DNA from: an archaeon | GTDB taxonomy: Archaea > Nanobdellota > Nanobdellia > Woesearchaeales > UBA9642 | DNA: 51,270 nt | Assembly: GCA_043806035.1 (NCBI GenBank) | Contig: JAZDHK010000026.1 | Span: 1-51,270 of the forward strand | Direction: 5' to 3' | Shown: positions 6,146 to 33,302 of the stretch, in pieces | Layout: each line of letters begins with the position of its first letter | How positions within the stretch are numbered: position 1 is the stretch's first letter | Position numbers and translations under genes: made by a program | The notes under the pieces: model-generated | Databases searched by the model: none | The model's input: the letters and a program-made list of their open reading frames with translations, nothing else | Told to the model about the DNA's origin: nothing

Positions 6146-6222
6146 ATAGGACAAACGTCGTATCAATGACTGCAAGGCGGCGACGCACGAATATTTATAT
6201 ACTCCTGGAAAAACGGACATGC

Positions 6223-6765
6223 ATGGACATCGTTGATTTTTTCAGAAAGGCTATTCGTCTCAAAGATGTGCAGCGCACCGGGTGGGTGCATAAAGGAATC
6301 CCCCATCCAGAAAGCGTCGCCCATCACTCGTGGGGTGTCGCTCTTCTTGCGCTCATCATTCCCACTCCTCCTGCGGTTGATAGAGAACGGCTTGTCGCGA
6401 TGGCACTCATTCACGATCTTGGCGAGATCGCTATCGGCGATTGGGTCTGGGAGAAAGGAGCGTACAGCGATGTTGAGAGACAGAAGAAGAAACACGAGCA
6501 TGAGCTTGCATTCATGAACAATACATTGATCGGCGAGCAACGGGAGCTAGGCATCGAATTCATCGAACAGCAAACGCCTACTGCCAAATTCCTCAAGGAA
6601 CTCGACAAGCTCGACATGGTCTTCCAAGCGCTCGAATACGAAAAAAGAGTCCCCGCAGCGACGCTTGACGAGTTCTGGGAGAATGCGGAAAAGTACATCA
6701 CCACACCTTCGTTGAAAGAAATTCTTGCAACACTTAAGCTGAAGAGAACTACACCATCTCCTTAA
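6223..6765 (+). CDS. HD-domain 5'-deoxynucleotidase-like protein (HDDC2/YfbR family)
   Basis: LKDVQRTGW, ESVAHHSW, ALIHDLGE, LKELDKLDMVFQALEYE. Confidence 0.88.
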   Translation: MDIVDFFRKAIRLKDVQRTGWVHKGIPHPESVAHHSWGVALLALIIPTPPAVDRERLVAMALIHDLGEIAIGDWVWEKGAYSDVERQKKKHEHELAFMNNTLIGEQRELGIEFIEQQTPTAKFLKELDKLDMVFQALEYEKRVPAATLDEFWENAEKYITTPSLKEILATLKLKRTTPSP

Positions 6766-7411
6766 TATCCCCAATCTTTCCCACGAACTTGTAGAATTGC
6801 GGCGGGCGGTGGCTCACGTTCCGGTCTATTTCCTTCGTTGGCTCAACTATCTTCAGACTGAAGAGTTTCTTCCTGAAATTGCGCTTGTCAAATGGCTTGT
6901 CGAAGACGACTTCATAGAGTCGCTGCAAGGAGGTGAGCGTGAACTTTTCAGGCAATACAGAAAAGGCGACGGTGGTGTATTCGAACTTCCAACGCAGCCG
7001 TTGAAGTGCATATTCGAGGATGTTCTTGTGGTCGAACGCAAGAGAGGGAAGTTTTTTTATAGAGAACCAACGTGCGTGTTCAGCATCCGTTGACGCCTGG
7101 AGTGTCTGCTCGAGCGCCGTGAGCCCAAAATAGGTTATAGTGATGACTCGTCCTCGCGGATCTCGGTTAATGCCTCCGAACGTGTAGAGCTGTTCTAGAT
7201 ACGAGACATTGACTCCCGTTTCCTCTGACAATTCTCTCTTTGCAGCATCTTCAAGTTCTTCCTTCTCCCTGACGAAACCTCCGGGAATGGCCCACATGCC
7301 TTTGAAGGGAGGGATGCCTCTCCGTATGAGCAGCACCTTGATTTCTTCATTGATGATGCTGAACAGGATGATGTCTACCGTTACGGACGGCTTGAAATAG
7401 TCCTTTGGCAT
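6749..7411 (-). CDS. nrtR: NrtR, Nudix-related transcriptional regulator of NAD metabolism
   Basis: N-terminal Nudix (WAIPGGFV..EELEDAAKRELSEETG, RDPRGRVIT, LAFDH) plus C-terminal wHTH (LPEKFTLTSLQRLYE..DKRNFRKK..HRPPQFY). Confidence 0.92.
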   Translation of the reverse strand: MPKDYFKPSVTVDIILFSIINEEIKVLLIRRGIPPFKGMWAIPGGFVREKEELEDAAKRELSEETGVNVSYLEQLYTFGGINRDPRGRVITITYFGLTALEQTLQASTDAEHARWFSIKKLPSLAFDHKNILEYALQRLRWKFEYTTVAFSVLPEKFTLTSLQRLYEVVFDKPFDKRNFRKKLFSLKIVEPTKEIDRNVSHRPPQFYKFVGKIGDIKEMV

Positions 7412-8332
7412 CTACGCACTCCTCTTTTCGAGCAGGACGATGTTGATCGTCTGCCAATACTCATATCCCTGCTTGTGCTGTTTTTTAAGATTGTGCTTTT
7501 CCAAGTACTTCAACCAGCGCTTGTTGTTGAGGATGTTATTCACTTTCAGAGGAACGGTCATTTTTTCGAGAAGGGTCATCTTCATGACGGGTTTCTTCTT
7601 CATGACGACATCCCAGCACAGACTGCTGATGTTGATGACCATGACGCCGTTCTCGTTCAAATAGTCCTGACCGTGATGGACGAGATGATTGAGGAGCTTT
7701 ACTCCCTCATACGGGTTGTCGTCGATGCTGCTCGGTCTGGGAACGTATGGCGGATTGCAAATCAGTAGATCAAACTTTGCATGCTTGATCTTGGGAAAGC
7801 CGTCGCCTGCGTAGAATGATGCCCTGCTGTCCTTGATGTTGTCCATGGCGCATTTTATGGCGTACGGATTAAGATCGTTGACGAGAAAGGACTGCACCTT
7901 GCTCTTGGCGAGGACGTACTTGCTCAAAAAGCCCGAGCCGCAGCCCAATTCAGCTCCCGTCCTGAACTGTTTTCTTTTCCTGAACACGTTCCTGAGCGCT
8001 TTTGCAAAAAGGAGGGTGTCGATGCTCGGACACCACACGTTGAGGTGCGTGTGATCCCAGAACGTGCTCACCCCATCATACGAAATGATGCGGGGTTTTT
8101 GCGTGTACAGAGAGAACAATGTCTCCCGCAGCGGTGCAGACAGCTTTGCTATCCGCCACGTGTCCGTCACCAAGACAGGATTCCTGAACGTGTGCACGTA
8201 CACTTTCTTCTCAGGAGGAAAGGTGAACACTCGCTTGCCGTTGAGCCTGTCCTTGCCCATGATACTGCACAACTCAACGCCGTTCGCAAAAATATCCTGC
8301 CGGGTAAGGTCCGGGCTGAATACAATGATCAT
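7412..8332 (-). CDS. Class I SAM-dependent methyltransferase (HemK/small-domain-like) with N-terminal extension
   Basis: ELGCGSG motif I, DLN, FDLLICNPPY motif. Confidence 0.8.
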   Translation of the reverse strand: MIIVFSPDLTRQDIFANGVELCSIMGKDRLNGKRVFTFPPEKKVYVHTFRNPVLVTDTWRIAKLSAPLRETLFSLYTQKPRIISYDGVSTFWDHTHLNVWCPSIDTLLFAKALRNVFRKRKQFRTGAELGCGSGFLSKYVLAKSKVQSFLVNDLNPYAIKCAMDNIKDSRASFYAGDGFPKIKHAKFDLLICNPPYVPRPSSIDDNPYEGVKLLNHLVHHGQDYLNENGVMVINISSLCWDVVMKKKPVMKMTLLEKMTVPLKVNNILNNKRWLKYLEKHNLKKQHKQGYEYWQTINIVLLEKRSA

Positions 8333-8370
8333 AATCCATCCTTGAAATCATGATTTAAATGCTTTGTTCT

Positions 8371-8943
8371 TTATCCTGCATACAAGCCGTGCTTGCGAAT
8401 GTACGTGCTGACTGCTGCAGGAAGATGTTCCGGCTTTTTTCCCGCTGCTATGCATTGCCTGATGCGCCTCGAGGAAATGTTGTCTGCAGCTACGTGAATC
8501 CTTGTCATATGCATGCCGGGCAGAGCGTGGACGGGAAATCCCTGACGGTGAAATACGAGGAAGTGCACCTTGCGCAAGAGTCGCCCATAATACTTCCAAT
8601 CAGGCAATTCCTTGATGAGATCACTGCCAATGATGAAGCTGAACTGAAACGGATAGCGTTTTTCCAAGAGTGCGATGGTACGATAGGTGTAGTTGATGTC
8701 TTGTGTCGTGAGTTCGACAGAGGATATGTGCACGCCACGCATGCCCTTGAACGCAAGCTTGAGCATAGCCACGCGATGCTTAGCAGATGTAAGTTCTTTC
8801 CCGAATGCATGTTTTTTGCAGGGAATGATCCACACTTCGTCGACAAGCTTTCTCTGAAGCACGGTGTGTATGAGCTTGATGTGCGAGTTGTGTATGGGAT
8901 TGAAGCTTCCTCCTAACAATCCTACGCGCAGGCTTTTCCTCAT
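8371..8943 (-). CDS. nadD: Nicotinate-nucleotide adenylyltransferase, bacterial type
   Basis: GLLGGSFNPIHNSH, FIIGSD...LPDWK, ISSRRIRQ. Confidence 0.9.
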   Translation of the reverse strand: MRKSLRVGLLGGSFNPIHNSHIKLIHTVLQRKLVDEVWIIPCKKHAFGKELTSAKHRVAMLKLAFKGMRGVHISSVELTTQDINYTYRTIALLEKRYPFQFSFIIGSDLIKELPDWKYYGRLLRKVHFLVFHRQGFPVHALPGMHMTRIHVAADNISSRRIRQCIAAGKKPEHLPAAVSTYIRKHGLYAG

Positions 8944-9779
8944 TTCAGGTCACGCAAGAACTCATACTGCTTCTTCGCCAAATCTCCGATGATGGTGAGC
9001 TTTTCTCCTGGAACGATGTGGATGGTGTTCCTGGATGTGAACGGGTAGTGCGTGTAGGACCCGTCGATGTAGAGCATGCCGTGCTTTGCCTTGAGCTTGA
9101 CATGCAGGTCTTCTGCAAAGAGATGCTGTTTGTTTCGCCTGCTCAGGAAAGTGTACTGCAGTCGTGGCTCGTGCAGAGGCATGACCAGCCCTCCTTCATT
9201 CCACATCCACGCAGTGGATGCCTGCGGTGTGCACGCGAGAATTGCATACTGCTTTCCCTGCAATGCCTTGCCATTCACTCGCACGTCATCTATGGTTTCT
9301 GCAGGGTTGCTGTCTCCTATCCTGACATCGTTCAGCATCATTTCTGGGATAGCGTAGTCGTCGATGAAAAGCCTATACCGTTGGAGTGTAGTCCGTGGAA
9401 CGGCGTCGAGCGTGGAAAGCATGCTTGCAATGGTGTCCCCCGTCGCTGCCGTGTAGAAGCCGACGCTGAACCTCGTGGCATTGACGCCAAGCAAAGGAGT
9501 ATCGCCGATGGCGTGCGAGGCGCTGATGAACGTCCCATCACCTCCAACGGAAATAACGAGATCCTTGTTCTGCACATGCTTGAACTGCTCTCTCAAGATC
9601 AGGTCGTGCGTGTACGGCTGTAACGCCTGCATGACCTTGTCTAGCGTCACTTTCTCCTCCTCATGCTTCAGGAGCAGATGGGCAGCCTCTTGCGGGTCTT
9701 TCTCGAGGAGTTCCCTCCACGTCCCCCGTTCTTGCTGCTTCTCATACTCCGTCTTCCTGTACACGGCAAGTATGTTCAT
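8940..9779 (-). CDS. nadK: NAD(+) kinase
   Basis: DLVISVGGDGTF, LLGVN, SVGFY, MLNDV, TPQASTAW, IDG motifs. Confidence 0.8.
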   Translation of the reverse strand: MNILAVYRKTEYEKQQERGTWRELLEKDPQEAAHLLLKHEEEKVTLDKVMQALQPYTHDLILREQFKHVQNKDLVISVGGDGTFISASHAIGDTPLLGVNATRFSVGFYTAATGDTIASMLSTLDAVPRTTLQRYRLFIDDYAIPEMMLNDVRIGDSNPAETIDDVRVNGKALQGKQYAILACTPQASTAWMWNEGGLVMPLHEPRLQYTFLSRRNKQHLFAEDLHVKLKAKHGMLYIDGSYTHYPFTSRNTIHIVPGEKLTIIGDLAKKQYEFLRDLK

Positions 9780-9830
9780 GCTGTCACGAATGCGGTTATT
9801 CTTAAAAACATTACGGTCTCTTTACCACCT

Positions 9831-10730
9831 TCACGAATACCGTTCGGCTATGGCCTCGAGCAGGTTGAGCGCGCTGAGCACGCTTTCCTCACGCATGCAC
9901 ACGTCATCTCCCAGCATGAGGGTTCTGTAGCCCATGCGCAGTACGTTATCAACGTCGCCTATGTCCTCGCAGCTCGGGTAGTTGCTGTTCGAGAGGCTGG
10001 CAAAGAGCCGCGAAGCCATAATGGCGCGCTTGTCCTTCTTGATGATGCTTTCTGATGCTGCAATGATATCATGGGGAAGGGGCACTTCCTGGTAGAGATC
10101 CCCTCGTGCAGTCATCAGGCGAACTCCTTTCGCTTCTTTCTGCACGTACTGCAGGCCTTTCCTGCTCTCAATCTTTGCAATGAGTTCTGCTGCAGGATCA
10201 AGCGCTTTCACATCATCAAGGTCTGCGTTGCTCTCCACAAAACTCATCATATACTTGCTGTTCTTGACGTTTCGCGCTGCTGCGATGTATGCCTTGTCCG
10301 TATCGGTGAGGTTGCCTTCAATCACTAAGCTAGAGTCGATGATGTTGACGCTCTCCCCTGGTCCCACGACTCGTCTCGGCCCTTCCAGCGTGATGAGCTT
10401 GTTGCCGTCAATGGCAACGACGGTTGCCTGGTCTGTGCCGTTGCTGAAATACGCAGTCGTTGGCACGTTCACCGTGATAGGATGGCTCAGCTCGATCGAG
10501 GTGAAAGGTGGTGCCCAATAACTAACAACGCGCAACTGCCTCCCCTTCAGGTCTATCCACACGTCCTTGCCGTCTGCAATGTCCTGCAGTCGCTTGATGA
10601 CCTCTTCGAGCGTCTCTGTCTTCTTGATTGGCATGACGGTATTCAGTCGCAATCCCGAGACCAATCCGTGCCGTGCCACCTTCTTGAGGAAGGGAGCGTA
10701 GGGGGGAACAGTCACTATAGCATCTACCAT
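9831..10730 (-). CDS. Pyruvate-kinase-like protein (barrel and lid only, no C-terminal allosteric domain)
   Basis: RLN, WIDLKGRQLR, SFVES, IAKIES..G, MTARGDL, PSCEDIGD, LMLGD match PK barrel motifs; 299 aa. Confidence 0.8.
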   Translation of the reverse strand: MVDAIVTVPPYAPFLKKVARHGLVSGLRLNTVMPIKKTETLEEVIKRLQDIADGKDVWIDLKGRQLRVVSYWAPPFTSIELSHPITVNVPTTAYFSNGTDQATVVAIDGNKLITLEGPRRVVGPGESVNIIDSSLVIEGNLTDTDKAYIAAARNVKNSKYMMSFVESNADLDDVKALDPAAELIAKIESRKGLQYVQKEAKGVRLMTARGDLYQEVPLPHDIIAASESIIKKDKRAIMASRLFASLSNSNYPSCEDIGDVDNVLRMGYRTLMLGDDVCMREESVLSALNLLEAIAERYS

Positions 10731-10757
10731 GATTTCACCTTCTCCTTGCTTTTTTTT

Positions 10758-11717
10758 TCAGGCGAGCGGCTTGCTCACTTTCGCTGACTTGCTTGCATGC
10801 GTGACGCTTTTCGTCGCCGTTCCCGGGTCGACATGGCGCAGGCTTTTGTGCACGCTGATCGCGTCGTCATCGTCGTGCCGTGCAGAGAGATTGCTGCTGA
10901 AGTCTCCATACTGCCCCCATTTTTTGGCGATAAGGCCCATGGCAACATCCACTGCGCGCTGCTCGTCATACAATTGGATGACTTTCTGCTTGCCCAGTAC
11001 AGAGGACCATTGCTGGACGATCTCTTTCTCCATGCCGCCGCTGTAGGGCTTGTGGAGCATGTACACGTCGAACTTCTGCTGGAGCTTCTGCCACATCTCC
11101 CTCGAATTCAACGGGTTCTGTAGTGTATCCCCAACGTAGTGTTTGACTTGTGCAGGGTCTACTTGTTCGTAGAAACTCTCGTCCCCGAACATGATGAGGA
11201 ACGGACTCTTCGCCTTGGGAACGTTTGCGTGGTTGAGCATGTGATAACCAAAAAGCTCATAACTCTCAAAATGCTGGCCTCCGCCACCGCCTTCTGCGCA
11301 CAATGCCTTGATGTGGTCGTCTAAGTCTACGCCCTTGCCGAAATTGTTGATCTGCAAGGGATAACTGTCACAAGTCGCGTCGCCGATGGCTGCAAAGCTA
11401 ATTTCTAGGTCTGGTTTGTACTGCGATAACGTCTTGTACAGCAGCGGCAGTCTGTCGAAGATCTCGCCAGGCCAGCTCGCCATGGATCCCGTCACGTCGA
11501 CCGCAATGATCAGCGGGTTTTCACTGTCGCTCGTGATGTCCTTCTTTGCAGTCACGAGTTTCGAGTTCGGCGCTGACCTGTTCACGTACGTCCTGTTCAG
11601 CTTTCCCGTTGCTGCAGCGTCTGACGCCAACTTGTCTAAGTACGGCTTTCGTGCGCTGTCAAACTTGTACTTTTTTGGATTTCTCCAGGTGTTCACATCA
11701 TCTACCCATCCATACAT
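10758..11717 (-). CDS. von Willebrand factor A (vWA) domain protein
   Basis: MIDAS-like IAVDVTGSM, FAAIGD, EGGGGG..ESYEL, IMFGDE. Confidence 0.85.
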   Translation of the reverse strand: MYGWVDDVNTWRNPKKYKFDSARKPYLDKLASDAAATGKLNRTYVNRSAPNSKLVTAKKDITSDSENPLIIAVDVTGSMASWPGEIFDRLPLLYKTLSQYKPDLEISFAAIGDATCDSYPLQINNFGKGVDLDDHIKALCAEGGGGGQHFESYELFGYHMLNHANVPKAKSPFLIMFGDESFYEQVDPAQVKHYVGDTLQNPLNSREMWQKLQQKFDVYMLHKPYSGGMEKEIVQQWSSVLGKQKVIQLYDEQRAVDVAMGLIAKKWGQYGDFSSNLSARHDDDDAISVHKSLRHVDPGTATKSVTHASKSAKVSKPLA

Positions 11718-11777
11718 GTTCTCTCCTCCATAGCTTACGCTATCAATCGCTCTACTCTTTGCAGTGCATCAGCAGCA

Positions 11778-12542
11778 TCACATGGTGTGGCGTCTGCCGA
11801 ATACTGCTTCCCTGATGTCAGAGAGCTTCTGAATCAGGTTTTCCTTCTCCCAGTTTGGCCTGTCGACAGGATTGTACTTGAGGAATGCCTCCGCATACTG
11901 CTTTACTGGATCGGGAACGTGCTTGGGAAAATTCTTTGCCAGCACATCTCCACCCAAGGCGTGCAGCATGACCATGCCCACCCCATAAAGATCGCTCTCA
12001 GGAATGGGTGGCTTGTTCTGCAGGAGCTCGGGTGCCGCATACGCTTTTGTATATCCTAATGGAGAGGTGTCATGTTTTGGTCTGAATGCGCTCAAGCCGT
12101 AATCGATGAGTGCGATGTTGTGGATTTCTGGCTGCAAAATAATATTTTCTGGCTTGACATCGCAATGCACGATACCGTTGGCATGCAGGTAGTGCAGTGC
12201 ATTCAGGAGCCGTTGGGTTATCCAGCACACGTCCTCGGGATGGATGGGTCCCTTCTTGCTCACAATCTCGTCGAGGTTTTTCCCTTTCGCAAGATTGAGG
12301 GCAATGACGTAGCTGCCATCTCCCGCAGGGAAGAAATCCTTGATTTGGGGCAGGCTGTAGTGGTGAATATCCCAGAGTACTTTCGCTTCCATCTTCATCA
12401 GCTCAGTGTCTTGAGGGCTGACGTTGATGTTCTGTTTCAGGCAGGCTTTCGTCTCGAGGAGCGTGTGTTCTGCCTCGTATGCCCTCGCGAATCCTCCTTG
12501 GCCTATCTGTTTGATGATCTTGTAATTGCCGAGCGTGGTCAT
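11778..12542 (-). CDS. Hanks-type Ser/Thr protein kinase (catalytic domain only)
   Basis: IGQGGFARAY, CLK, HCDVKPENI, LIDYG, YAAPE, SDLYGVG. Confidence 0.95.
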   Translation of the reverse strand: MTTLGNYKIIKQIGQGGFARAYEAEHTLLETKACLKQNINVSPQDTELMKMEAKVLWDIHHYSLPQIKDFFPAGDGSYVIALNLAKGKNLDEIVSKKGPIHPEDVCWITQRLLNALHYLHANGIVHCDVKPENIILQPEIHNIALIDYGLSAFRPKHDTSPLGYTKAYAAPELLQNKPPIPESDLYGVGMVMLHALGGDVLAKNFPKHVPDPVKQYAEAFLKYNPVDRPNWEKENLIQKLSDIREAVFGRRHTM

Positions 12543-13162
12543 GCTCTCACCCCTCCATCATCCGTAGTGAGTATTCGTTCTTCCTCTGCGCTGAGCGATC
12601 TGTTGTAGTCCTTGCCCATGGTCTCTGCCAGTATCTGCAGGCCAAATTCTTTCCGTAACCGCTCGTCGAGTTTTTGCTGGACGATGTACTGGGCGACTTC
12701 TGGAGGGACAAGCTCCTTCCAATTCCCTCCCTTTGCCATTTCTACCCTGACTGACGTTCCGGTCATGAAGACACGCTTCTCGTAAGGAATGTACGTTGCC
12801 GGCCCGGTAGTGAGGTAGATGTCCGAGAGTAAGTCGAGGACGTACTTGTCTCCGCTGACGAACACGTCGAGATCTCCGAATTTTCCGTGAACGGTTTCTG
12901 TCCATTTCTTGCCGTCACGATATTCGGGAATGTGCCCAAAGTCAGGAATGTGAACAACGTCGTACTTTCCTTTCCAGCTCTTGTCCATGTAGCTTCTGAT
13001 CATGCCTTCTGTCTCTTCTGCAGTGAAGGGGCAGCGGTAGTTGTACTTGTTGCTGCTGCCTATGCCAATAATGAGATGGTCTGTCCTTTCGCAGATGCTG
13101 TCCAGCAGCAATGCCCCACCGAGGTGGAAGGGCTTCCATCTGCCTATGACGCCTATTTTCAT
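12539..13162 (-). CDS. nadM: NadM-type NMN adenylyltransferase-like protein
   Basis: GRWKPFHLGG, LIIGIGSSN, CPFTAEE, TGTSVR...WKELVPPEV; second His of HxGH replaced by Gly. Confidence 0.78.
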   Translation of the reverse strand: MKIGVIGRWKPFHLGGALLLDSICERTDHLIIGIGSSNKYNYRCPFTAEETEGMIRSYMDKSWKGKYDVVHIPDFGHIPEYRDGKKWTETVHGKFGDLDVFVSGDKYVLDLLSDIYLTTGPATYIPYEKRVFMTGTSVRVEMAKGGNWKELVPPEVAQYIVQQKLDERLRKEFGLQILAETMGKDYNRSLSAEEERILTTDDGGVRA

Positions 13163-13671
13163 GGTAGACACCTCTTGCGAAGTTGTTCGTATTTCTTATG
13201 CACATCCAGTTCATCCCACTCCTCTCGTTTACTGTCTCTGTCAAATTCCAGAAAGTCCAGGTATGCCTTCAGGATTGCATAATGGTCGAATGCGAACGCA
13301 TCAGGAGACAAGGCACGTATCTCATCAAGGCTGTAGAGCATAGCATCTTTTGCATCATCTCCCGCACGGAGAAAGCCTTTGCCTTTCGCCACGTACACGA
13401 CGCTGACGACATGCGTACGAGGATCCCGTTCAGGATTTGAGCACACGAGGAATGGCTGCTGGTCTTTCTTGATGATGATGTCCAGGCCTGTTTCTTCTTT
13501 CGCCTCTTTCCGCGCATTATCTTCCAGAGAGAGGCCGTATTCCGCAAAGCCGCCAGGAATGGCAAGTCCGTATGGTGGGTTTTTTCTCTTGATGAGGATG
13601 ATGCCGCTTTTTTCTTTCTGCTCGTACTGGATGATGATGTCCGTTGCCAGCAGGGGATTCTTGTAATTCAT
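13159..13671 (-). CDS. Nudix hydrolase, ADP-ribose pyrophosphatase type
   Basis: NPLLATD, LIKRKNPPYGLAIPGGF, ARKEAKEETG Nudix box, RDPR, AGDDA, AFDH. Confidence 0.9.
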   Translation of the reverse strand: MNYKNPLLATDIIIQYEQKEKSGIILIKRKNPPYGLAIPGGFAEYGLSLEDNARKEAKEETGLDIIIKKDQQPFLVCSNPERDPRTHVVSVVYVAKGKGFLRAGDDAKDAMLYSLDEIRALSPDAFAFDHYAILKAYLDFLEFDRDSKREEWDELDVHKKYEQLRKRCLP

Positions 13672-13729
13672 GGTTGTAGTCCTCCATCTAGTCCTTCATG
13701 TGTAGTACCGACACTGCCTGCTTTGGCGC

Positions 13730-15727
13730 TTATGCAGGCGTGTATTTTTGTAGGGCAAGGATTCGTTGTTTGAGTGTGTCGTATTTTCTTGAGAGTTCCC
13801 AGGGGAGCATGCTCTCTCTGAGATCATAGCCAAATGCAGTCTTTGAGGTGACGATGACGGGCGGGCTTTGGACGCGTTTGAAGACGTTCTTGTGCATCGT
13901 CTCAAAGAACCACGTGACATCCTCGACGAATGTCTGTGGCTTGTCCACTCCCCATCGCTGCATGAGCTCTAGGGGAACGTTGAGGTTCGTGTGCAGGTTT
14001 CCCTCAGCATACCATTGCATGATCGTTTCCATGCCTGCCTTCTTGTAATCCATGACTTTTTCGAGCAGTGCGTCGTGATAGCCGAATTTCATGGGATCAA
14101 CCTGATTATCTTTGAGTTCTGCGCTGGGCTGGATCTGGTCTTTCCGGTAACGGAAGAGACCGTCGGGAATGAGAATTTCAGGAATGACTTCTTTGCCGTA
14201 CAGCCTGTTGAGGTGTTTTGCCATCTCGATGATTTCTGTCTTTGTCAGATCGCCGAGAAGGGCAATTGCACCGTCGATATCGCCGTACAGCGTCGCGTAG
14301 CCGAGTGCCATTTCTAATTTGTTGCCGTTGTTCGTGAACAATGCGTGATATTTGGCTGCGATGTTGCTGAGCATGTTCGTGCCGCGAATCTTCGCCTGGA
14401 TGTTCTCGATATTGAGCTCTGAAAGTTTTGTGTTCTTGCCGTCAAGGTCTAAGGTGTCTAGGAGTTGCGCGTTGAGGTCGACGAGTTCCTGGATGGGCGC
14501 CTGCACGTACGCGATGCCGAGCGTGTCAGCAATCTGCTCTGCAGTACTTTTCGTCTTTGCAGAATTGTATTTTGTCGGCATGTTTATGGCGAGAACTCGC
14601 TCTGGACCTATTGCTTTGGCGAGCAGTGCTGCCGTGACTGCACTGTCAATGCCTCCACTCAATCCCACGACGAATTTTGGCTCGTGAGCAGAGCGCATCA
14701 GATGTTTCATGTGCCGTATTCCTTGGATAATAGCATCGTATTTTTGCGCTATCTTCGATTGTTCCTTGCGCGATTCTGGTTTTCTTGATAGGTCAACGAG
14801 CATGAGCTCTTCCGTGTAGGGCTGGCTGCTGAATTGCACGGGCAGGCCATCCGCATTGTACACAGTAGACCCACCATCTAACGTGATGATGTTCTTGCCA
14901 TTGTTCTGCACGCCGGTGCAGTTGACGTACAGGAAGGGAACGAATGATTCCCCGGACTCTGTCTTGAGAAATTTGACGCGCTTGTCGCGTGCAGCGTTCT
15001 TGCCATACGTCCAGGGACTCGAAGAAATATTTGCTATAAGTTCTGCGCCGTTTTCGATGAGCATCTTCGTTGGATTCAGTACGTTGCCGTTCATGCGATA
15101 ATCTTCACACCACAAATCCTCGCACAATTCAAAACCAATTTTGTGAGTCTCGCCTTTCTTTTCGATGAGGAACGGCTGCTCGAGTTTCTCCAGAGGAAAT
15201 CCTGCATCCTTGGCCACGTCCTGCAGACTGAAAAAGTAACGTTCGTCATCGAAGAAACGATAATTAGGAAGAAGTGTCTTGGGTTGCACACCTTCTGGCA
15301 GAATAGGTGTTTGTACTGCACGTCGTGCAGGCTTGCCATCCTGAACGACGTAGATGGCGTTGTACTTGCGTAGCCTGCCGTCCTTGTTGGGATGGAAGTT
15401 GCCATCAGAGAGCCGTGCAGCGACATCATCAACGTACACATTGCCGTAAGCAACAGCTATGCCTGCACTTGCCTTGCGGATGTCCTCATTGAAGCTCATG
15501 AGCATCTGGCAGTAGTCTTCGTCCGTGAACTTGTCGCCGAGCAGGTAGCCACCGACGCACATCTCGGGAAAGACAATCAGGTCTATATGTTGCTGCTTCG
15601 CCTGTTCAATCATGCGCAGCATGTTCTCCGTGTTCTTTCGCGGCATGCCAGGAACGACTTCCATCTGTGCAAGTGCAATCTTCATGTGTTCCTCCTCGAC
15701 TCGTTCTTGCAAGGTCATAATGTTCAT
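13730..15727 (-). CDS. nadE: Glutamine-dependent NAD+ synthetase
   Basis: Nitrilase domain (IALAQ, FPEM, K..LPNYRFFDDERYF, ELCEDLW) fused to synthetase domain (GLSGGIDS, ENIQAKIRG, NKLE.ALGYATLYGD, PSAEL, FKRVQSPP); exact start 15727/15718/15685 uncertain. Confidence 0.95.
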   Translation of the reverse strand: MNIMTLQERVEEEHMKIALAQMEVVPGMPRKNTENMLRMIEQAKQQHIDLIVFPEMCVGGYLLGDKFTDEDYCQMLMSFNEDIRKASAGIAVAYGNVYVDDVAARLSDGNFHPNKDGRLRKYNAIYVVQDGKPARRAVQTPILPEGVQPKTLLPNYRFFDDERYFFSLQDVAKDAGFPLEKLEQPFLIEKKGETHKIGFELCEDLWCEDYRMNGNVLNPTKMLIENGAELIANISSSPWTYGKNAARDKRVKFLKTESGESFVPFLYVNCTGVQNNGKNIITLDGGSTVYNADGLPVQFSSQPYTEELMLVDLSRKPESRKEQSKIAQKYDAIIQGIRHMKHLMRSAHEPKFVVGLSGGIDSAVTAALLAKAIGPERVLAINMPTKYNSAKTKSTAEQIADTLGIAYVQAPIQELVDLNAQLLDTLDLDGKNTKLSELNIENIQAKIRGTNMLSNIAAKYHALFTNNGNKLEMALGYATLYGDIDGAIALLGDLTKTEIIEMAKHLNRLYGKEVIPEILIPDGLFRYRKDQIQPSAELKDNQVDPMKFGYHDALLEKVMDYKKAGMETIMQWYAEGNLHTNLNVPLELMQRWGVDKPQTFVEDVTWFFETMHKNVFKRVQSPPVIVTSKTAFGYDLRESMLPWELSRKYDTLKQRILALQKYTPA

Positions 15728-16638
15728 CCGTTTATATTCTTTACGACATACAGCTTCTTTTCTGCTGGCGTTATGGTAACGAGGCTTCCCGTGTTGAATT
15801 CCAAGTAGTCATCTTCTACGCCATCGCCAAAAATGACGCCCTGCTCGGCCATCCGCGAACGCACCCGTAACGGTTCTGTTTTCAGTATCCGCCCTTGCAT
15901 CATGCTTGTCCCCGTTACTTTCGTGGGGAAAGGGTTCATTGCCGTGTACACGAGGAATGGCGCATCCCCCGAAAATGCACAGGATGACTGCTTACGCGCG
16001 GACAGGCAGTGTGCAGCGTTCATGATGGACGTGTACCATCCCGTCGATCCCGTTCCTGTTGTTATGAGCAGGCCGTCGCTGCTCTGCGCTTCCTTCTGCC
16101 GTTTGTGCATCAACTCATATCGTGATGAGACGTGCGTCTTTCTGCCGATGTAGATGTCATTGAGCGCATAAAGAATCTGGCCATCATCGAGCTTCGCTTC
16201 TGCCATGGTGAGTGCGGTCGTGGTTGCCCTTCCCGAAAGCTCCGCATTTAACAATGCAGGAAAACCGTCAGTCGTGCAGCTTGCAAGCACGCCATCGAAC
16301 CGTTTGGGGTCGGGATTGACGAGCAGGACGTGGTTGTTGTTTGTGTACTTTGCAAGGTTCACTAACAGACCATCATCGCCGACAGCGACGATGCAATCCT
16401 GCTCCCCGAACTGGTATGTGGGCAGTTGCGTCTTGTCGATGCACGTGTGCCGTACGTGTTTAGGAATGCATGCCGCAACAGCCGCAAGGCCGGCATGGTA
16501 GTCCTCGTGCGCACTCTTGAATTCCGCATAGGAGTCACCTCTGCTTTCCAGGTAGAATTTTGCCTGGCTGAGCGTGGTGTGCCTTCTCAGCAAGTCTTCG
16601 AGTGCGGTTGTTTTCTTCACGAGGACAATGTCGGTCAT
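15724..16638 (-). CDS. Atypical NAD-kinase-like protein (SPFH-associated type)
   Basis: VAVGDDGLLVNLAKY, VNPDPKRFDGVL, ALNDIYIG, QSSDGLLITTGTGSTGW, GVIFGDGVEDD. Confidence 0.85.
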   Translation of the reverse strand: MTDIVLVKKTTALEDLLRRHTTLSQAKFYLESRGDSYAEFKSAHEDYHAGLAAVAACIPKHVRHTCIDKTQLPTYQFGEQDCIVAVGDDGLLVNLAKYTNNNHVLLVNPDPKRFDGVLASCTTDGFPALLNAELSGRATTTALTMAEAKLDDGQILYALNDIYIGRKTHVSSRYELMHKRQKEAQSSDGLLITTGTGSTGWYTSIMNAAHCLSARKQSSCAFSGDAPFLVYTAMNPFPTKVTGTSMMQGRILKTEPLRVRSRMAEQGVIFGDGVEDDYLEFNTGSLVTITPAEKKLYVVKNING

Positions 16639-16653
16639 GCGTTCACGTCTCCT

Positions 16654-17514
16654 TCACTTTTTTTGCATCAGCGCTGCCATCACCTCGGGAGTGATAGTTA
16701 ACTGTCCGATGTTCTGCGCGTTCTTTCCTATCTGGTAGAATCCCAATGCTGCAAGCAGTGCAGGATCCTGTTGGTAGGCCTGCAATTCTGTGGTTATTGC
16801 CTTTGCCCTGAATGCTGCCTCTGCCAGGGTGTTCTGTCCTTGCAAGTCAACAAGATCCTTCTTGCGGTTTTCCATGTCGATGTCCGTTTGCATCTGCTTT
16901 TCCTTGATCTTGCGCGCATTCTCCTGCGCCTGCAATTGTCGTGCGTGGATGGCAAGATCCTGCTTTTGCAGAAGATTTTCCCGATAGTCCGCCTCAAGGG
17001 CCTTTGCAATCTCCGGCTTTGGCTTTATTGACGCAATGTACATCAAACTCACTTCAATGCCGAGCTCCTGGAAGTCCTCCGTTTTTAGTTTTTGGGAAAT
17101 GTCTCGAGAGAGCTGTTCGCTCAGGCCGAGCATGTGTTCTAGGCTTTCTTTTTCCGCTATCCGCTTTGCCTCCTGCTGGAGGTAGTGCACGAGCTGGCCA
17201 GGCACGGCATCAGGGTCTTCTGACAAGTATCCTTTTGTTAAGGGATTGATGCTGAAGTTGTACTTGTCAATAAGCTTCTTCGGATCCGCTATCCTGTACA
17301 CCAGTCCTCCCTGGATAGTGATTTCTTGGTTGTCTTTCGTTACTTCCTGGAAGGTGAACGGCTGATCGTTCGTCCCTAGCTGCACGAGCTCTATCGTTGT
17401 CCTGAACGGCAGGTAGAATCCTGCAATGCCCGCTCCTTCTTTAGCAATTTTTCCGCCGACGCGCATCCGCATGAATTCGGTCGGCTCTGCTTTGAAGTAA
17501 TGTATTCCTAACAT
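16654..17514 (-). CDS. SPFH/Band 7 domain protein
   Basis: YFKAEPT, EGAGIAG, F.EVTKDNQEITIQG..YRIADP SPFH core followed by a coiled coil. Confidence 0.88.
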   Translation of the reverse strand: MLGIHYFKAEPTEFMRMRVGGKIAKEGAGIAGFYLPFRTTIELVQLGTNDQPFTFQEVTKDNQEITIQGGLVYRIADPKKLIDKYNFSINPLTKGYLSEDPDAVPGQLVHYLQQEAKRIAEKESLEHMLGLSEQLSRDISQKLKTEDFQELGIEVSLMYIASIKPKPEIAKALEADYRENLLQKQDLAIHARQLQAQENARKIKEKQMQTDIDMENRKKDLVDLQGQNTLAEAAFRAKAITTELQAYQQDPALLAALGFYQIGKNAQNIGQLTITPEVMAALMQKK

Positions 17515-18401
17515 GTTTTCCCCTCCTTCGCAAATGCTTGCAAAAACTCATCAGTGGTCATGTAGTCTATGCCTATGTCTTTGCAGACGCTCATGCAGGC
17601 TTCCCTGCTCTGCTCCTGCGTTTCATAACCGAGACCGACGCCGTATAGTGATGTGGTCGCATCAGCAATGTTGATGACGCGCTCACTTCTGTTCGGGAAC
17701 ATTTGCTTTAATCCCGTAGAGGTGTGCAGTCTGCAAATGCCCTCGACGACCCCGGTGTTGACAAAGACGAGGTCATATGCTTCTTCAGGATATTTTTGCC
17801 GAAGAAGACTGAAGACATTTCCATTCTTGGAAGGAACTCCCTGCCACGTGCCATGGGGCAGTGCAAGATCACTGTCAAGCCGTGTCGCATCAAAGTACTG
17901 TTTTGGCGCGATGATGTAGCTGAAATCTTCCTGCACGAGTTGTTCTTCAGTGACGAGTGGTGCATTGAATGTTTTCTCAATGTCATGTGGGTTGCAGAAT
18001 GGTTCTTTTGCGTTTCCTTGGAAGTAAACCCCGCGCGGGACATAGAGTGCAGTCTTTCTTCCTTTCAGTGCATCTTGCAAGATGTTGGTGAGGCAAGGAC
18101 TCGTGGTTCGCTCATCGAGCGTGTACTCATTGCCGTGCTCGTCTCGTACATAAACAAAATCGTTGTCAAACCGTTCGGGAAGGATGGTGTTATGGACGGG
18201 ATAGAGTCCTCCGTTGATTTCGAATTCTGGCGCATTGTCCGGATGCACGTCTGTCGAGTAGATGACCACATCTGCCATGCGTGCTATCCGTGCAGCGTTT
18301 TCCTTGTTGGCGTCTGTCGTGCCGCAGTAGAAGCTGCCGTTCTCGTCCACGAATGATTTTGACCAGTCGATGAGGTTTGCGATGATGATTTGTTGTTTCA
18401 T
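17508..18401 (-). CDS. pncA: Nicotinamidase / isochorismatase-family cysteine hydrolase, divergent with insertions
   Basis: LIDWSKSFV, STDVH, YPVHN, PKQY, TGVVEGIC carry the D/H/K/C catalytic and metal residues; position next to pncB. Confidence 0.72.
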   Translation of the reverse strand: MKQQIIIANLIDWSKSFVDENGSFYCGTTDANKENAARIARMADVVIYSTDVHPDNAPEFEINGGLYPVHNTILPERFDNDFVYVRDEHGNEYTLDERTTSPCLTNILQDALKGRKTALYVPRGVYFQGNAKEPFCNPHDIEKTFNAPLVTEEQLVQEDFSYIIAPKQYFDATRLDSDLALPHGTWQGVPSKNGNVFSLLRQKYPEEAYDLVFVNTGVVEGICRLHTSTGLKQMFPNRSERVINIADATTSLYGVGLGYETQEQSREACMSVCKDIGIDYMTTDEFLQAFAKEGKTC

Positions 18402-18871
18402 GCTATCACCCTTGTTTTCTGGATATGAATACCATAATCAGTTTGCGTCCACCTATCATTATGAGCACTGGCAGTATAGGTGTGTTCTTCGTATCTCAAC
18501 GCATAACTTCCCCCTGGCGTATCAAAGAGCAGGGGCGTGTTTTCAAGGCCGTGCTTGAAGAGCTTGTCGAGCACGTTCTTGTTCAGTACGTGTTCTCCTT
18601 CGAGCGTACCGAGAGTTCGTTCCGCATCCAATACAATATACCCTCTGAATCGATCATTAGCAGTCTGCCATGCATACTCTGTTGGTTTGCCCGTCTTTGA
18701 ATCGTATCGTACTGCATCGTATATTTCCCTCATAGGATAAGACTCTATGATGTCCACGAGGCCAGCGATGACTGTCTTCGGGGAAGATGATTTGAAGAGT
18801 TGTGCTATTTTTTTGCATGTCTCTCGGGGCATACGAATTTGTCCATGCATTGGTGTTTTTTTATCTGACAT
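18398..18871 (-). CDS. Hypothetical protein (157 aa) inside the NAD cluster
   Basis: ATG preceded by GAGGGTGA SD right after the pncB stop; ATGA overlap with pncA. Confidence 0.7.
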   Translation of the reverse strand: MSDKKTPMHGQIRMPRETCKKIAQLFKSSSPKTVIAGLVDIIESYPMREIYDAVRYDSKTGKPTEYAWQTANDRFRGYIVLDAERTLGTLEGEHVLNKNVLDKLFKHGLENTPLLFDTPGGSYALRYEEHTYTASAHNDRWTQTDYGIHIQKTRVIA

Positions 18872-18875
18872 GTTC

Positions 18876-20240
18876 TCACCCTCCATATTTCTCCTTGAGC
18901 TGCTGCACGAGTGCAGTGAGTTTCTTAGAGTGCTGCACGACGTACGTGTTGACAACAGTCCGTTTGAGTTCGTCAGGCAGTTTTGCGACTTCACTGAACG
19001 CGTACGCTCTGATATCGTTGAGTTCTCTTCGTGCAGTAACTCTCTTGCCTTCTCTGACAACTTCTTCGAGAAGAGGTTGGGCGTTCTGTACGTGTTCTGT
19101 TTCGAGCGTGATGATGTCCGTGATGTACTTGCCGTCAACACCCGTGATACGATGAACTTGCTTCTTGCCAGGCAAGGTTATTTTATCTTCGCTCAGTTTT
19201 ATCTTCGGGCCATCACTGTCTTCCGCGAGCTTGTACACGCCGGGCAGTGCAGCAGTTGGCTTTGCCGTGATGAGTTCCGTGCCCACGCCGTAACCGTCGA
19301 TGGGTGCTCCTGCCATTTTGAGTTCTGCGATCTTGTACTCGTTGAGGTCGTTGCTCGCGACAATCTTGACGTAGGGTAGTCCTTCTGCGTCGAGAATCTT
19401 CCTGACGTCCTTTGCGAGGGTAGCGAGGTCGCCGCTGTCAAGGCGGACAGCGCCGAGCGTATGCCCTTGCCGTGCTAGCTCATTGCCCACTATGGCAGCG
19501 TGCCTCGCGCCCTGCAAAGTATCGTAGGTATCGATTAGGAGTGTTGCCTGTTCTGGGAATGTTTTGACGTATGCCCTGAACGCATCTAATTCAGTGGGGA
19601 AGGACATGATGAAGCTGTGCGCGTGCGTTCCCGAGATAGGAATGTTATATTTCTTGCCTGCTTTGACGTTGCTTGTTGCTTTCGCTCCGGCGATGTATGC
19701 TGCTCTTGCTCCTTTCATGCCTGCATCTTCCTCTTGCGCCCTGCGCAGGCCGTAGTCGACGACGCCAGCAGGAGCGGCGGCTTCCACGATTCTGCTCGTC
19801 TTGCTTGCAATCATGGTCTGGAAGTTGATGATGTTCAAGAGTGCGGTTTCGAGGAATTGTGCCTGGCTTCGCTTCGCCGTTATTCTCAGAATTGGTTCAT
19901 TAGGAAATACGACCGTTCCTTCTTTCACTGCAGCGATGCTTCCTTCGAACGTGAATGTTTTGAGGCTTTGCAGGTAGTCTTCCTTGAAGATGCCCTGCTC
20001 GCGGAGATAGTCTATGTCTTCGTCGCTGAAATGGGTGTTCGTTGCGTAGTCGATGGCGTCTTCGATGCCGTTCGCGATGAAGTATCCCCAGTCTTTCGGG
20101 AGTTTCCTGATGAACAAGTCAAACGTTGCAATGTCGTCCGCCATGCCATTATCAAAATAGGCGGCGTTCATGGTTAATTGGTAGAGATCCGTGAGCAGGG
20201 TTTTGTTTTCGAGTGTTTCTTTGTTGGCAAGGGTTGTCAT
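18876..20240 (-). CDS. pncB: Nicotinate phosphoribosyltransferase
   Basis: LLTDLYQLTM, FPNEP, DYGLRRAQ, GTHAHS, LIDTYD, VRLDSGD, ASNDLNE, GVGT, GVYKL, LPGKKQV. Confidence 0.96.
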   Translation of the reverse strand: MTTLANKETLENKTLLTDLYQLTMNAAYFDNGMADDIATFDLFIRKLPKDWGYFIANGIEDAIDYATNTHFSDEDIDYLREQGIFKEDYLQSLKTFTFEGSIAAVKEGTVVFPNEPILRITAKRSQAQFLETALLNIINFQTMIASKTSRIVEAAAPAGVVDYGLRRAQEEDAGMKGARAAYIAGAKATSNVKAGKKYNIPISGTHAHSFIMSFPTELDAFRAYVKTFPEQATLLIDTYDTLQGARHAAIVGNELARQGHTLGAVRLDSGDLATLAKDVRKILDAEGLPYVKIVASNDLNEYKIAELKMAGAPIDGYGVGTELITAKPTAALPGVYKLAEDSDGPKIKLSEDKITLPGKKQVHRITGVDGKYITDIITLETEHVQNAQPLLEEVVREGKRVTARRELNDIRAYAFSEVAKLPDELKRTVVNTYVVQHSKKLTALVQQLKEKYGG

Positions 20241-20252
20241 GGTATCACCGAT

Positions 20253-20573
20253 TTACTCGTACGGCCTCGCAAAAGGCCCATCGAACTGCGATGCGTTGGA
20301 TATCCCGCTTTCGGGTTTGAACGTGAGGAAGTCGCCGTCTCGTTGGTCTGAAGTGTACTCGACGTCCCAGCCTTGGCTTCTGTATCTATCTTCTATCGTC
20401 TCTCGTGCCAGTGCATTCGGGAAGATGTCTGCGTCGATGGTTATGTAGCTAGAATTTGCCTGCATGCCCGTGATGAGGGCTTGGTCGATGCACTGCTCGA
20501 GTCGTTGGAGCTCGTCCTCTGTTGGGCGTGCCTTGCTTATTGCGTCTTGGGGCGTTAATGCCATGTCGATCAC
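20253..20573 (-). CDS. Hypothetical protein, first gene of the NAD cluster
   Basis: ~105-aa ORF, YRSQGWDVEYTSDQRDGDFLTF segment; start at 20573 or 20564. Confidence 0.7.
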   Translation of the reverse strand: MIDMALTPQDAISKARPTEDELQRLEQCIDQALITGMQANSSYITIDADIFPNALARETIEDRYRSQGWDVEYTSDQRDGDFLTFKPESGISNASQFDGPFARPYE

Positions 20574-20574
20574 C

Positions 20575-20637
20575 TACGTGTAATTTTTACTCTCTTAGTG
20601 TTTTTATTACACTTAATTAGTGTAAAAGTAACACCAA
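20575..20637. promoter_or_regulatory. Three tandem NrtR-like operator boxes (GTGT-N7-AC[A/T]C)
   Basis: GTGT-aattttt-ACTC (20578-20592), AGTGT-ttttatt-ACACT (20597-20613), GTGT-aaaagta-ACAC (20620-20634); NrtR boxes share a GT-N7-AC core. Confidence 0.72.
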
Positions 20638-20645
20638 TATATAAA
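20638..20645 (-). promoter_or_regulatory. Archaeal TATA box of the NAD cluster
   Basis: Minus strand reads TTTATATA immediately upstream of the three boxes. Confidence 0.6.
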
Positions 20646-27372: not shown

Positions 27373-27465
27373 GCCTCCGTAGCATAGTAGCTATTGCGTT
27401 GCCTTGGTAGTGCAGAGATGCAAGCAAAGAGGCAAAGGTCGCGAGTGCAACTCTCGCCGGAGGCT
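27373..27465 (+). tRNA. tRNA-Thr(GGT) with a 20-nt intron at position 37/38 (27410-27429)
   Basis: Acceptor GCCTCCG/CGGAGGC with discriminator T; anticodon stem TTGCC/GGCAA around TT-GGT-A|A; T-stem GCGAG/CTCGC; upstream TTTATAAA at ~27341. Confidence 0.88.
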
Positions 27466-33160: not shown

Positions 33161-33302
33161 GCCATCACCTTCCATGTGTTCATGAATGAGGGAAGAGCAG
33201 TACAGAGATATCAACATAACCACTGTATTATGTACTCAAATAAACAATTGTGTATTTTGTCCTTTTCAAAACATTTATATATACTTGTTCTTTCCTTGGA
33301 GC

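Follow-up and report, generated by a model that had tools for sequence, protein, structure and literature searches.

In the locus described here a small, symbiont-type archaeon carries its genes for the synthesis of nicotinamide adenine dinucleotide (NAD) in one long array that also encodes a protein kinase, a von Willebrand factor A (vWA) protein and a short pyruvate kinase (PK)-like protein, referred to below as mini-PK. The array lies in a stretch of 51,270 nucleotides (the window), which is contig C26 (JAZDHK010000026.1) of a 1.50-Mb genome (GCA_043806035.1) that is divided into 42 contigs and is 93.7% complete. It consists of 16 successive minus-strand open reading frames (ORFs) that run from position 20573 down to 6749. 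The locus is fairly likely to be a single operon, repressed by the regulator NrtR, that makes NAD and NADP from nicotinamide or nicotinate and has a kinase–vWA–mini-PK module embedded within it. The three genes of this module are conserved together, and their vWA/mini-PK core is common to the archaeal operon and to a bacterial NadM–vWA–mini-PK–NadE cassette.

Coding sequence makes up 13572 of the 13816 nt of the array. Four of the junctions are ATGA overlaps (hypA/pncA, nadK2/nadE, nadM/kinase and nadK1/nadD), and the others include one 7-nt overlap, one 13-nt overlap and one zero gap. An earlier note on this DNA had listed 16 minus-strand genes in the same order with such overlaps and had placed the organism in a DPANN-like lineage. 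The ORF list confirms the first statement, and the second agrees with the nearest loci, which come from Woesearchaeota or Nanoarchaeota metagenome-assembled genomes. Pfam and NCBIfam name 12 of the 16 proteins in agreement with that first reading, and its 'pncA' and 'vWA', neither of which has a Pfam family, hold good by profile, motifs and fold.

The enzymes of the array are predicted from their families to run the Preiss–Handler route to NAD and then on to NADP. The PncA-like protein would convert nicotinamide to nicotinate, from which PncB would form nicotinate mononucleotide (NaMN). NadD or the NadM-like protein would then yield nicotinate adenine dinucleotide (NaAD), NadE would convert this to NAD, and the two NAD-kinase-like proteins would produce NADP. 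The separate Nudix enzyme (13159..13671), putatively an ADP-ribose pyrophosphatase, would remove ADP-ribose; in NCBIfam it best matches the Nudix half of NadM-Nudix and that of NrtR. The gene set from nicotinamide to NAD(P) is complete, in line with the earlier claim that NAD+ is rebuilt from nicotinamide.

The assignments within this route vary in strength. NadE exceeds its model comfortably (TIGR00552, 124.4 bits against a cut-off of 63.65). NAD-kinase-like protein 1 also matches NCBIfam NAD kinase models from 3e-12, under their cut-offs, and NAD-kinase-like protein 2 gives no Pfam match at 0.01. The PncA-like protein matches no Pfam family even at an E-value of 10, the Isochorismatase model included, and none of its 116 homologues carries a Pfam domain, although two are named 'nicotinamidase-related amidase' by their source. 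In an alignment of 22 homologues D12, D51, H53, H70, K167 and C223 are invariant; we take D12, K167 and C223 to be the nicotinamidase catalytic triad and D51, H53 and H70 to be the metal site. The profile of the family weakly matches the isochorismatase 5zn8 (E 0.004), to which the D and C regions align, and the nicotinamidases 3o90 and 3s2s (E 0.04-0.05).

The NAD enzymes of the array are the only ones detected in this genome. A tblastn search with all 16 proteins gave copies elsewhere only for nrtR, the Nudix gene, the methyltransferase and the kinase–vWA–mini-PK trio, and for pncB, the pncA-like gene, nadD, nadM, nadE and both NAD-kinase-like genes the genome yielded no second copy. The single strong NAD_synthase match in the genome is the NadE of the window, and QRPTase_C (NadC) was not found there. 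Because these genes are the sole detectable copies, the cluster is best seen as a housekeeping NAD(P) route and not as an extra rescue device; the array is probably the ordinary and only route to NAD(P) in this archaeon. The earlier note had proposed something 'more than cofactor housekeeping', which fails for this genome, and had called such a cluster unexpected in the lineage. It is instead a recurrent minority trait: in a sample of 201 genomes of the phylum 26 encode NrtR_WHD, and the vWA gene is present in 9 of 41 relatives.

Control by NrtR, which the earlier note had also claimed, is supported by palindromes at the head of the operon. Rodionov et al. (2008, PMC2330246) describe the NrtR motif as a palindrome of 21 bp around a GT-N7-AC core, which the core of the two operators upstream of the array matches. 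A third palindrome core, with one mismatch, lies at 20578-20592, and the operators are placed between a TATA-like TTTATATA (~20638-20645) and the first start codon. A position weight matrix (PWM) trained on relatives only and applied to the 1.5-Mb genome scores the operators at 20594-20638 with 24.5 and 17.7 bits, and they are two of only four sites of at least 14 bits in the whole genome. Exact GTGT-N7-ACAC cores number 12 in the genome and three in the window, the latter all intergenic within the cluster. In 20 related archaeal loci (299 kb) 21 such cores are present against ~4.6 expected; these are mostly TTAGTGTA-N5-TACACTAA and stand upstream of pncB, nadE or hypB, so that the same motif precedes the clusters of relatives. 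An internal candidate at 13700-13714 has an exact core but scores below 12 bits with the PWM, and was not counted.

The NrtR protein contains both the Nudix-like N-terminal domain and the winged-helix C-terminal domain according to Pfam. By binding the two or three palindromes that lie in tandem downstream of the TATA-like box and ahead of the first gene, it would repress the operon. The Nudix box of its translation (G-x5-E-x7-R-E-L-x-E-E-x-G-V) appears complete, and the protein might keep hydrolase activity. ADP-ribose suppresses the binding of NrtR to DNA in vitro (PMC2330246), and by analogy with the bacterial NrtRs tested it may likewise release NrtR from the operon head here. ADP-ribose-responsive NrtR control, known from bacteria, would thereby be extended to DPANN archaea. 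A second NrtR paralogue, with 39% identity to that of the window, is encoded at C29:14973-16107, divergent to a Nudix gene. The two remaining genomic sites of at least 14 bits are at C32:9508-9530 (21.7 bits), at the start of a 204-aa gene without assignment that is followed by C39-like and DeoC-family genes, and at C42:11301-11323 (18.4 bits), 44 nt upstream of a glutamate dehydrogenase gene.

The conservation of the module was assessed from relatives of its vWA protein. A scan of one genome per species gave at least 524 stretches with such relatives, of which the best 80 were analysed (16 archaeal, 64 bacterial); as these are the loci most like the window copy, the counts that follow describe the vWA subfamily to which it belongs. 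The vWA gene is followed by mini-PK in 70 of the 80 loci (15/16 archaeal, 55/64 bacterial) and preceded by a NadM-like gene in 74 (15/16 and 59/64). NadE is encoded somewhere in 15/16 archaeal loci and downstream in 40/64 bacterial loci. Several of the missing neighbours are explained by contig ends, and four bacterial loci truly have no mini-PK. The kinase is directly upstream of vWA in 15/16 archaeal loci and in only 2/64 bacterial loci. The proposal that the accessory genes co-occur with NAD genes is thus borne out for the kinase, vWA and PK-like genes, whose neighbourhoods are conserved across many genomes. It fails for SPFH, which had been included in the attached module and is found in one of the 16 related archaeal loci (L028, beside nadK2). 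Among the other genes of the array, the Nudix gene is paired with nadM in 15/16 of these loci, and the methyltransferase adjoins nrtR in 2/16 (L035, L037).

The bacterial loci span Chloroflexota, Myxococcota (including the cultured Chondromyces apiculatus DSM 436), Acidobacteriota, Planctomycetota and others, and around the cassette itself no further gene is conserved. In Chondromyces (L067) it consists of a CTP_transf_like NadM-like gene, vWA, the PK-like gene and a glutamine-dependent NadE, and an ADP-ribosylglycohydrolase gene (13758-14729 of that locus; PF03747, 5.7e-71) is convergent on it. All five cassette-bearing bacterial genomes tested encode a separate strong NadE and a canonical NadD, which indicates that the bacterial cassette is an additional module. 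The idea of an inducible, extra NAD restoration system, which the earlier note had applied to the archaeal cluster, does not suit this genome with its sole copies, but in general form it receives some support from the bacteria.

Operators link the core to the NAD regulon in both domains. A PWM made from 13 sites, all of them archaeal, was applied to 964 kb of bacterial loci and gave nine sites of at least 12 bits. Eight of these precede vWA by no more than 250 nt and belong to eight of the 60 loci with room for such a site. NrtR_WHD is encoded in 5/5 tested genomes with an operator upstream of vWA and in 3/5 without an exact site. Of the new evidence, this enrichment by position argues most strongly for a functional membership of vWA and mini-PK in an ADP-ribose-responsive NAD regulon, and it suggests that the core belongs to the NrtR regulon in archaea and bacteria alike. 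Although the synthesis of NAD counts as completely mapped, 70 of the 80 closest loci, from archaea and several bacterial phyla, have two uncharacterised genes inside their NAD operons or cassettes, and in both domains NrtR-type operators precede these genes.

The module is also found outside NAD clusters, both in this genome and in relatives. Besides the window copy there are two others: one on C1 (~72070-76340; L021:8073-12340), where a DnaJ-domain Ser/Thr kinase, vWA and mini-PK are followed by adenylosuccinate synthetase (PurA; PF00709, 2.7e-60), and one on C23 (L020:8210-11953), after which a serine hydrolase is encoded. In another relative vWA and mini-PK are accompanied by Ham1 and a ThyA-like gene. 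Relatives of the vWA protein occur in 219 phage records. Phages of three unrelated groups have vWA as a neighbour of a PurA-like gene. Mycobacterium phage LinStu (L105) has an annotated kinase gene directly upstream of vWA and, after it, a small ORF and the PurA-like gene; in Vibrio phage Va1 (L106) and Rhizobium phage RHph_TM2_3B (L107) vWA stands directly before adenylosuccinate synthase; and an uncultured 485-kb phage (LR745208.1, L108) carries the full kinase–vWA–mini-PK trio at 38, 31 and 36% identity. That paralogous modules adjoin PurA, Ham1, a ThyA-like gene or no nucleotide gene speaks for a function that is general rather than specific to NAD. In a mini-PK tree of 43 rows made by a quick method the bacteria form one clade (Shimodaira–Hasegawa-like approximate likelihood ratio test 100), and the archaeal NAD-type rows are not resolved; for this reason, and with the root uncertain, no donor of a transfer is named.

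The vWA protein of the window was identified by its fold. It has no Pfam VWA model match, and sequence and profile searches of the PDB gave chance matches only (an antibody chain and HIV capsid, E of 0.1 or above). Its AlphaFold2 model has a predicted local distance difference test (pLDDT) value of 78.4 and matches in Foldseek the integrin beta I-domains and the vWA domains of ITIH1, NorD and CMG2, from 2e-6. The consensus of the metal ion-dependent adhesion site (MIDAS) in vWA domains is DxSxS, and the variant D74-V-T76-G-S78 is invariant in the alignment of the family. The N-terminal 45 residues are conserved yet not modelled. The protein also matches phrog_2971 (5.3e-27), a family that PHROGs lists without function.

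The mini-PK model is of higher quality (pLDDT 95.1), and all Foldseek matches down to rank 49 are pyruvate kinases; in a phmmer search of the PDB, PykF is matched at 1.2e-9. The protein consists of the A barrel and B lid in ~300 residues and ends at the last barrel helix. PK_C (PF02887) is absent from it and is found in the genome only at two other genes. As these encode two full-length pyruvate kinases, mini-PK is not the housekeeping enzyme. The motifs RLN, DLKGRQLR, KIE, ARGDL and ASR are invariant in 30 sequences, and the invariant positions, which include the catalytic set R28, K186, E188 and D211, align with the PykF residues that bind phosphoenolpyruvate (PEP), magnesium and phosphate. 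The literature searches turned up no paper on vWA or mini-PK as part of NAD operons, and among the matches listed for NAD salvage in Woesearchaeota none was relevant. Together, these results suggest that the vWA protein, as a metal-site adaptor, and mini-PK, as a shortened pyruvate kinase, are an undescribed pair.

For the function of this pair the preferred reading is a tentative one, with the chances somewhat against it: mini-PK would be a PEP-driven phosphotransferase that works with vWA and supplies nucleoside triphosphate to the adjacent salvage ligases. Catalytically competent, PEP-dependent and freed of the allosteric C domain, it would remake ATP or GTP from PEP for NadM and NadE, and for PurA in the paralogous modules. 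The vWA protein would act as its partner or regulatory subunit, and the Ser/Thr kinase may contribute phospho-control in archaea and giant phages. A broader version is possible but doubtful. Here vWA and mini-PK would form a two-subunit PEP-driven enzyme for a novel step or for energy coupling in NAD/adenine-nucleotide salvage, switched by ADP-ribose through NrtR in both domains, with Ser/Thr-kinase control added in DPANN archaea; giant phages would have taken up this unit. If so, the enzyme would be a missing cross-domain component of NAD homeostasis, important during NAD breakdown. Were the pair part of NAD/adenylate upkeep in any form, it would be a new component of a textbook pathway that links PEP to cofactor salvage, and would account for its presence in giant phages and host-dependent archaea. 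Cultivable bacterial carriers of the cassette exist, for example Chondromyces apiculatus, and would allow direct tests.

Several points weigh against the readings given so far. The main weakness of the energy-coupling proposal is that NadM and NadE yield pyrophosphate and AMP and not ADP, so that a PK-type conversion of ADP to ATP would not recycle their product directly. In addition, S76 and H77, which we take to be potassium/nucleotide-site residues of muscle PK, are V and M in the mini-PK family. In the family of the NadM-like protein R11, P14, H16 and V141-R142, among them the first His of HxGH and the V-R of the C-terminal motif, are kept, whereas the second His of HxGH varies and is G here, so that the substrate may not be NMN or NaMN. 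As regards control, the NrtR of the window scores 182.1 bits with NF050029, far under the equivalog cut-off of 400, and on this score is a distant family member. Because the palindrome at 13700-13714 scores so poorly, control of the distal half of the operon rests on read-through from the first promoter. In bacteria, 52 of the 60 loci with room upstream of vWA show no NrtR-type operator. Finally, a NadA homologue, the only one in the genome, is encoded on contig C15 (C15:1971-5075), ~1 kb from a sigma-54 DNA-binding-domain ORF, a bacterial feature, and could point to a partial de novo route to NAD. Only four of 40 relatives have a NadA match. This contig may be mis-binned or the gene transferred.

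The alternative that survives best, although it is unlikely, is that the module is a regulatory switch and no metabolic enzyme. The kinase would phosphorylate vWA or the enzymes, the MIDAS would bind a partner and mini-PK would sense PEP or the energy state, the whole tuning the activity or assembly of NadM/NadE (or PurA). vWA domains are usually adaptors, and the pairing of the vWA protein ArnB with the ArnC/D kinases in Sulfolobus is a precedent. The modelled vWA fold with its MIDAS-like DxTGS and the conserved N-terminal peptide left unmodelled would suit such a role, as would the kinase being the first gene of the module in 15/16 archaeal loci, in the 485-kb phage and in Mycobacterium phages, and its fusion to a J-domain in stand-alone copies. 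However, 62 of the 64 bacterial loci are without the kinase and retain vWA and mini-PK, and a full, invariant PK catalytic constellation would be superfluous in a pure sensor.

It is less likely still that mini-PK and vWA catalyse a novel step in the salvage of pyridines or ADP-ribose, such as the PEP-dependent phosphorylation of nicotinate/nicotinamide riboside, a ribose phosphate, ADP-ribose or NAD, in which case the bacterial four-gene cassette would be a self-contained alternative NAD route. The composition of the cassette is consistent with this, since it comprises the last two steps of NAD synthesis with vWA/mini-PK and nothing else conserved, and duplicates housekeeping NadD and NadE in the five genomes tested. 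The NrtR-type operators directly upstream of vWA, the adjoining ADP-ribosylglycohydrolase in Chondromyces apiculatus and the relaxed HxGH of the NadM-like protein, which hints at an altered substrate, point the same way. Against it, the PEP and nucleotide-phosphate residues of mini-PK are those of an ordinary PK, and paralogous vWA/mini-PK pairs stand beside PurA, Ham1, a ThyA-like gene or no nucleotide gene.

The remaining alternative, advanced in the earlier note, is improbable. On this view the cluster would be chiefly an inducible counter-measure, like phage NAD reconstitution, to toxins or defences that deplete NAD, whether these come from hosts, competitors or viruses. It would fit the response of NrtR to ADP-ribose, an NADase product (PMC2330246), the trio in the 485-kb phage and the vWA relatives in other phages, the extra copy in bacteria, and the rebuilding of NAD by phages through NARP1, NARP2 and NARP3 (PMC13464706; bioRxiv 10.1101/2024.02.11.579819). 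However, nothing found here favours it: the sole NAD-enzyme copies must serve routine supply, no NADase, sirtuin or defence gene that would support it was found, with SIR2 giving no match in the genome, vWA, mini-PK, SPFH, hypA and hypB have no PADLOC match, none of the 16 proteins is a named NARP enzyme (Prs-like Adps, NAMPT-like Namat or NadV, PnuC, NadR), and the flanking genes are ordinary chromosomal ones. PADLOC 2.0 likewise gave no match for nadK2, NadM and Nudix, and the kinase matches only generic kinase models (mad6, PD-T4-6) and the methyltransferase only the generic mad2.

The NrtR-repressed housekeeping operon can be set beside several known systems. It is the archaeal counterpart, on a larger scale, of the bacterial NrtR regulons described by Rodionov et al. 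(2008, PMC2330246), which include pncB-nadD-nrtR-nadE in Nostoc/Anabaena and nrtR-pncA-pncB-nadD-nadE in Clostridium acetobutylicum, as well as nrtX-nrtY, listed there as NrtR targets of unknown function; a literature search on the latter gave no other relevant paper. Common to both are pncA, pncB, nadD and nadE, an operon-encoded Nudix plus winged-helix repressor and a GT-N7-AC palindrome at the operon head. By contrast, the host here is an archaeon and the operators lie 3' of an archaeal TATA-like box; the array has 16 genes with both NadD and a NadM-like protein and two NAD-kinase-like genes, and it includes SPFH, a HemK-like methyltransferase and the kinase–vWA–mini-PK module. Phages rebuild NAD by NARP1 (Adps and Namat), NARP2 (NadV and NMNAT) and NARP3 (PnuC and NadR-like), as given in PMC13464706. 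These pathways resemble the array in rebuilding NAD, in their case from nicotinamide, ADP-ribose or riboside, and large phages likewise have members of the vWA family and the trio, but the array differs as a chromosomal housekeeping operon that follows the Preiss–Handler route. Pfam and NCBIfam scans found no Prs-like, NAMPT-like, PnuC or NadR family among its 16 proteins.

Bifunctional NadM-Nudix enzymes and the NadE/NadM route of Francisella also offer parallels, since a NadM-type adenylyltransferase is encoded here with an ADP-ribose-type Nudix and NadE, and the NCBIfam PRK05379 (NadM-Nudix) models were matched in the scans of the array proteins. By contrast, NadM and Nudix are separate overlapping genes here, the second His of HxGH is not conserved, and the vWA/mini-PK pair stands between NadM and NadE (bacteria) or NadK (archaea). 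The TerY-P triad is a vWA protein, a Ser/Thr kinase and a PP2C phosphatase in one operon. Like the module, it and the Sulfolobus ArnB/ArnC/ArnD proteins combine the gene of a vWA protein with that of a dedicated Ser/Thr kinase, but there is no PP2C or FHA here, the third partner is mini-PK and the context is nucleotide/cofactor synthesis. No PP2C domain was found in the 16 array proteins, which places the module outside the definition of TerY-P. Compared with canonical pyruvate kinase (PF00224 and PF02887; E. coli PykF, PDB 1pky, 8eq1), mini-PK has the same A barrel, B lid and PEP, magnesium and phosphate residues, but is without the C-terminal allosteric/tetramerisation domain (~300 against ~470 residues) and is always encoded after a vWA gene.

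Table 1. Features of the array and its operators, in the order of transcription, with positions in the window.
Feature	Position	Strand	Basis
Two adjacent candidate NrtR-type operators	23-mers 20594-20616, 20616-20638	-	Cores GTGT-N7-ACAC at 20598-20612, 20620-20634
hypB, small protein without family, first operon gene	20253..20564	-	ATG at 20564; alternative GTG at 20573
PncB, nicotinate phosphoribosyltransferase	18876..20240	-	NAPRTase_N 1.3e-36; NF006696 552.5 bits against cut-off 503
hypA, 157-aa protein without family	18398..18871	-	ORF only
Divergent nicotinamidase (PncA-like) with insert, 297 aa	17508..18401	-	Invariant motifs and weak profile matches
SPFH/Band-7 protein	16654..17514	-	PF01145 4.2e-19
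NAD-kinase-like protein 2 (nadK2), divergent	15724..16638	-	NCBIfam NAD kinase models from 5.3e-7, all far under cut-offs
NadE, glutamine-dependent NAD synthetase	13730..15727	-	CN_hydrolase 4e-12 and NAD_synthase 6.3e-41
Nudix hydrolase	13159..13671	-	PF00293 1.5e-14
NadM-like nucleotidyltransferase, archaeal NMNAT type	12539..13171	-	NF002243 5.1e-23, TIGR01527 2.6e-19, both under cut-offs
Ser/Thr protein kinase, catalytic domain alone	11778..12542	-	Pkinase 8.4e-36
vWA-fold protein, 319 aa	10758..11717	-	AlphaFold2/Foldseek fold, DxTGS motif
Mini pyruvate kinase	9831..10730	-	PF00224 44.4 bits against cut-off 30
NAD-kinase-like protein 1 (nadK1)	8940..9779	-	PF01513 2.7e-8, 34.6 bits against cut-off 25.5
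NadD, bacterial-type nicotinate-nucleotide adenylyltransferase	8371..8943	-	TIGR00482 136.5 bits against cut-off 112.45
HemK/PrmC-like methyltransferase, sequence with NPPY	7412..8332	-	MTS 2.1e-14; NCBIfam HemK-type models under cut-offs
NrtR, last gene of array	6749..7411	-	NrtR_WHD (PF21906) 2.7e-24, residues 149-209; PF00293 1.9e-23, residues 14-133

Neither of the small proteins at the head of the operon belongs to a named family. For hypB there is no Pfam, NCBIfam, PADLOC or PHROG family; a homologue heads pncB in one related locus (L013, 35% identity) and another lies 3' of an operator (L037). ESM Atlas scores of 0.87 or below are leads only, towards small phage and bacterial hypothetical proteins. 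For hypA the library scans gave no family, and no homologue was present in any related locus fetched.

At the other end of the array an HD-domain gene on the plus strand (6166-6765; HD_3/YfbR-like 5'-deoxynucleotidase, 3e-31) is convergent with nrtR and shares 17 nt with the 3' end of that gene, and a class II aminoacyl-tRNA synthetase-like ORF of 346 aa (tRNA-synt_2, 5105-6145) lies just upstream of it. Elsewhere in the window a tRNA-Thr(GGT) gene occupies 27373-27465, and its length of 93 nt could accommodate an intron. At 32015-35494 an ARPP-1 domain protein (PF20208, 6.4e-56), which going by its Pfam name is associated with ADP-ribosylglycohydrolase and rhodanese-phosphatase proteins, adjoins a MazE/AbrB-PhoU protein and an APH-type kinase. 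In three loci (L017, L018 and L022) stand-alone copies of the kinase–vWA–mini-PK trio are flanked by homologues of this PhoU protein.

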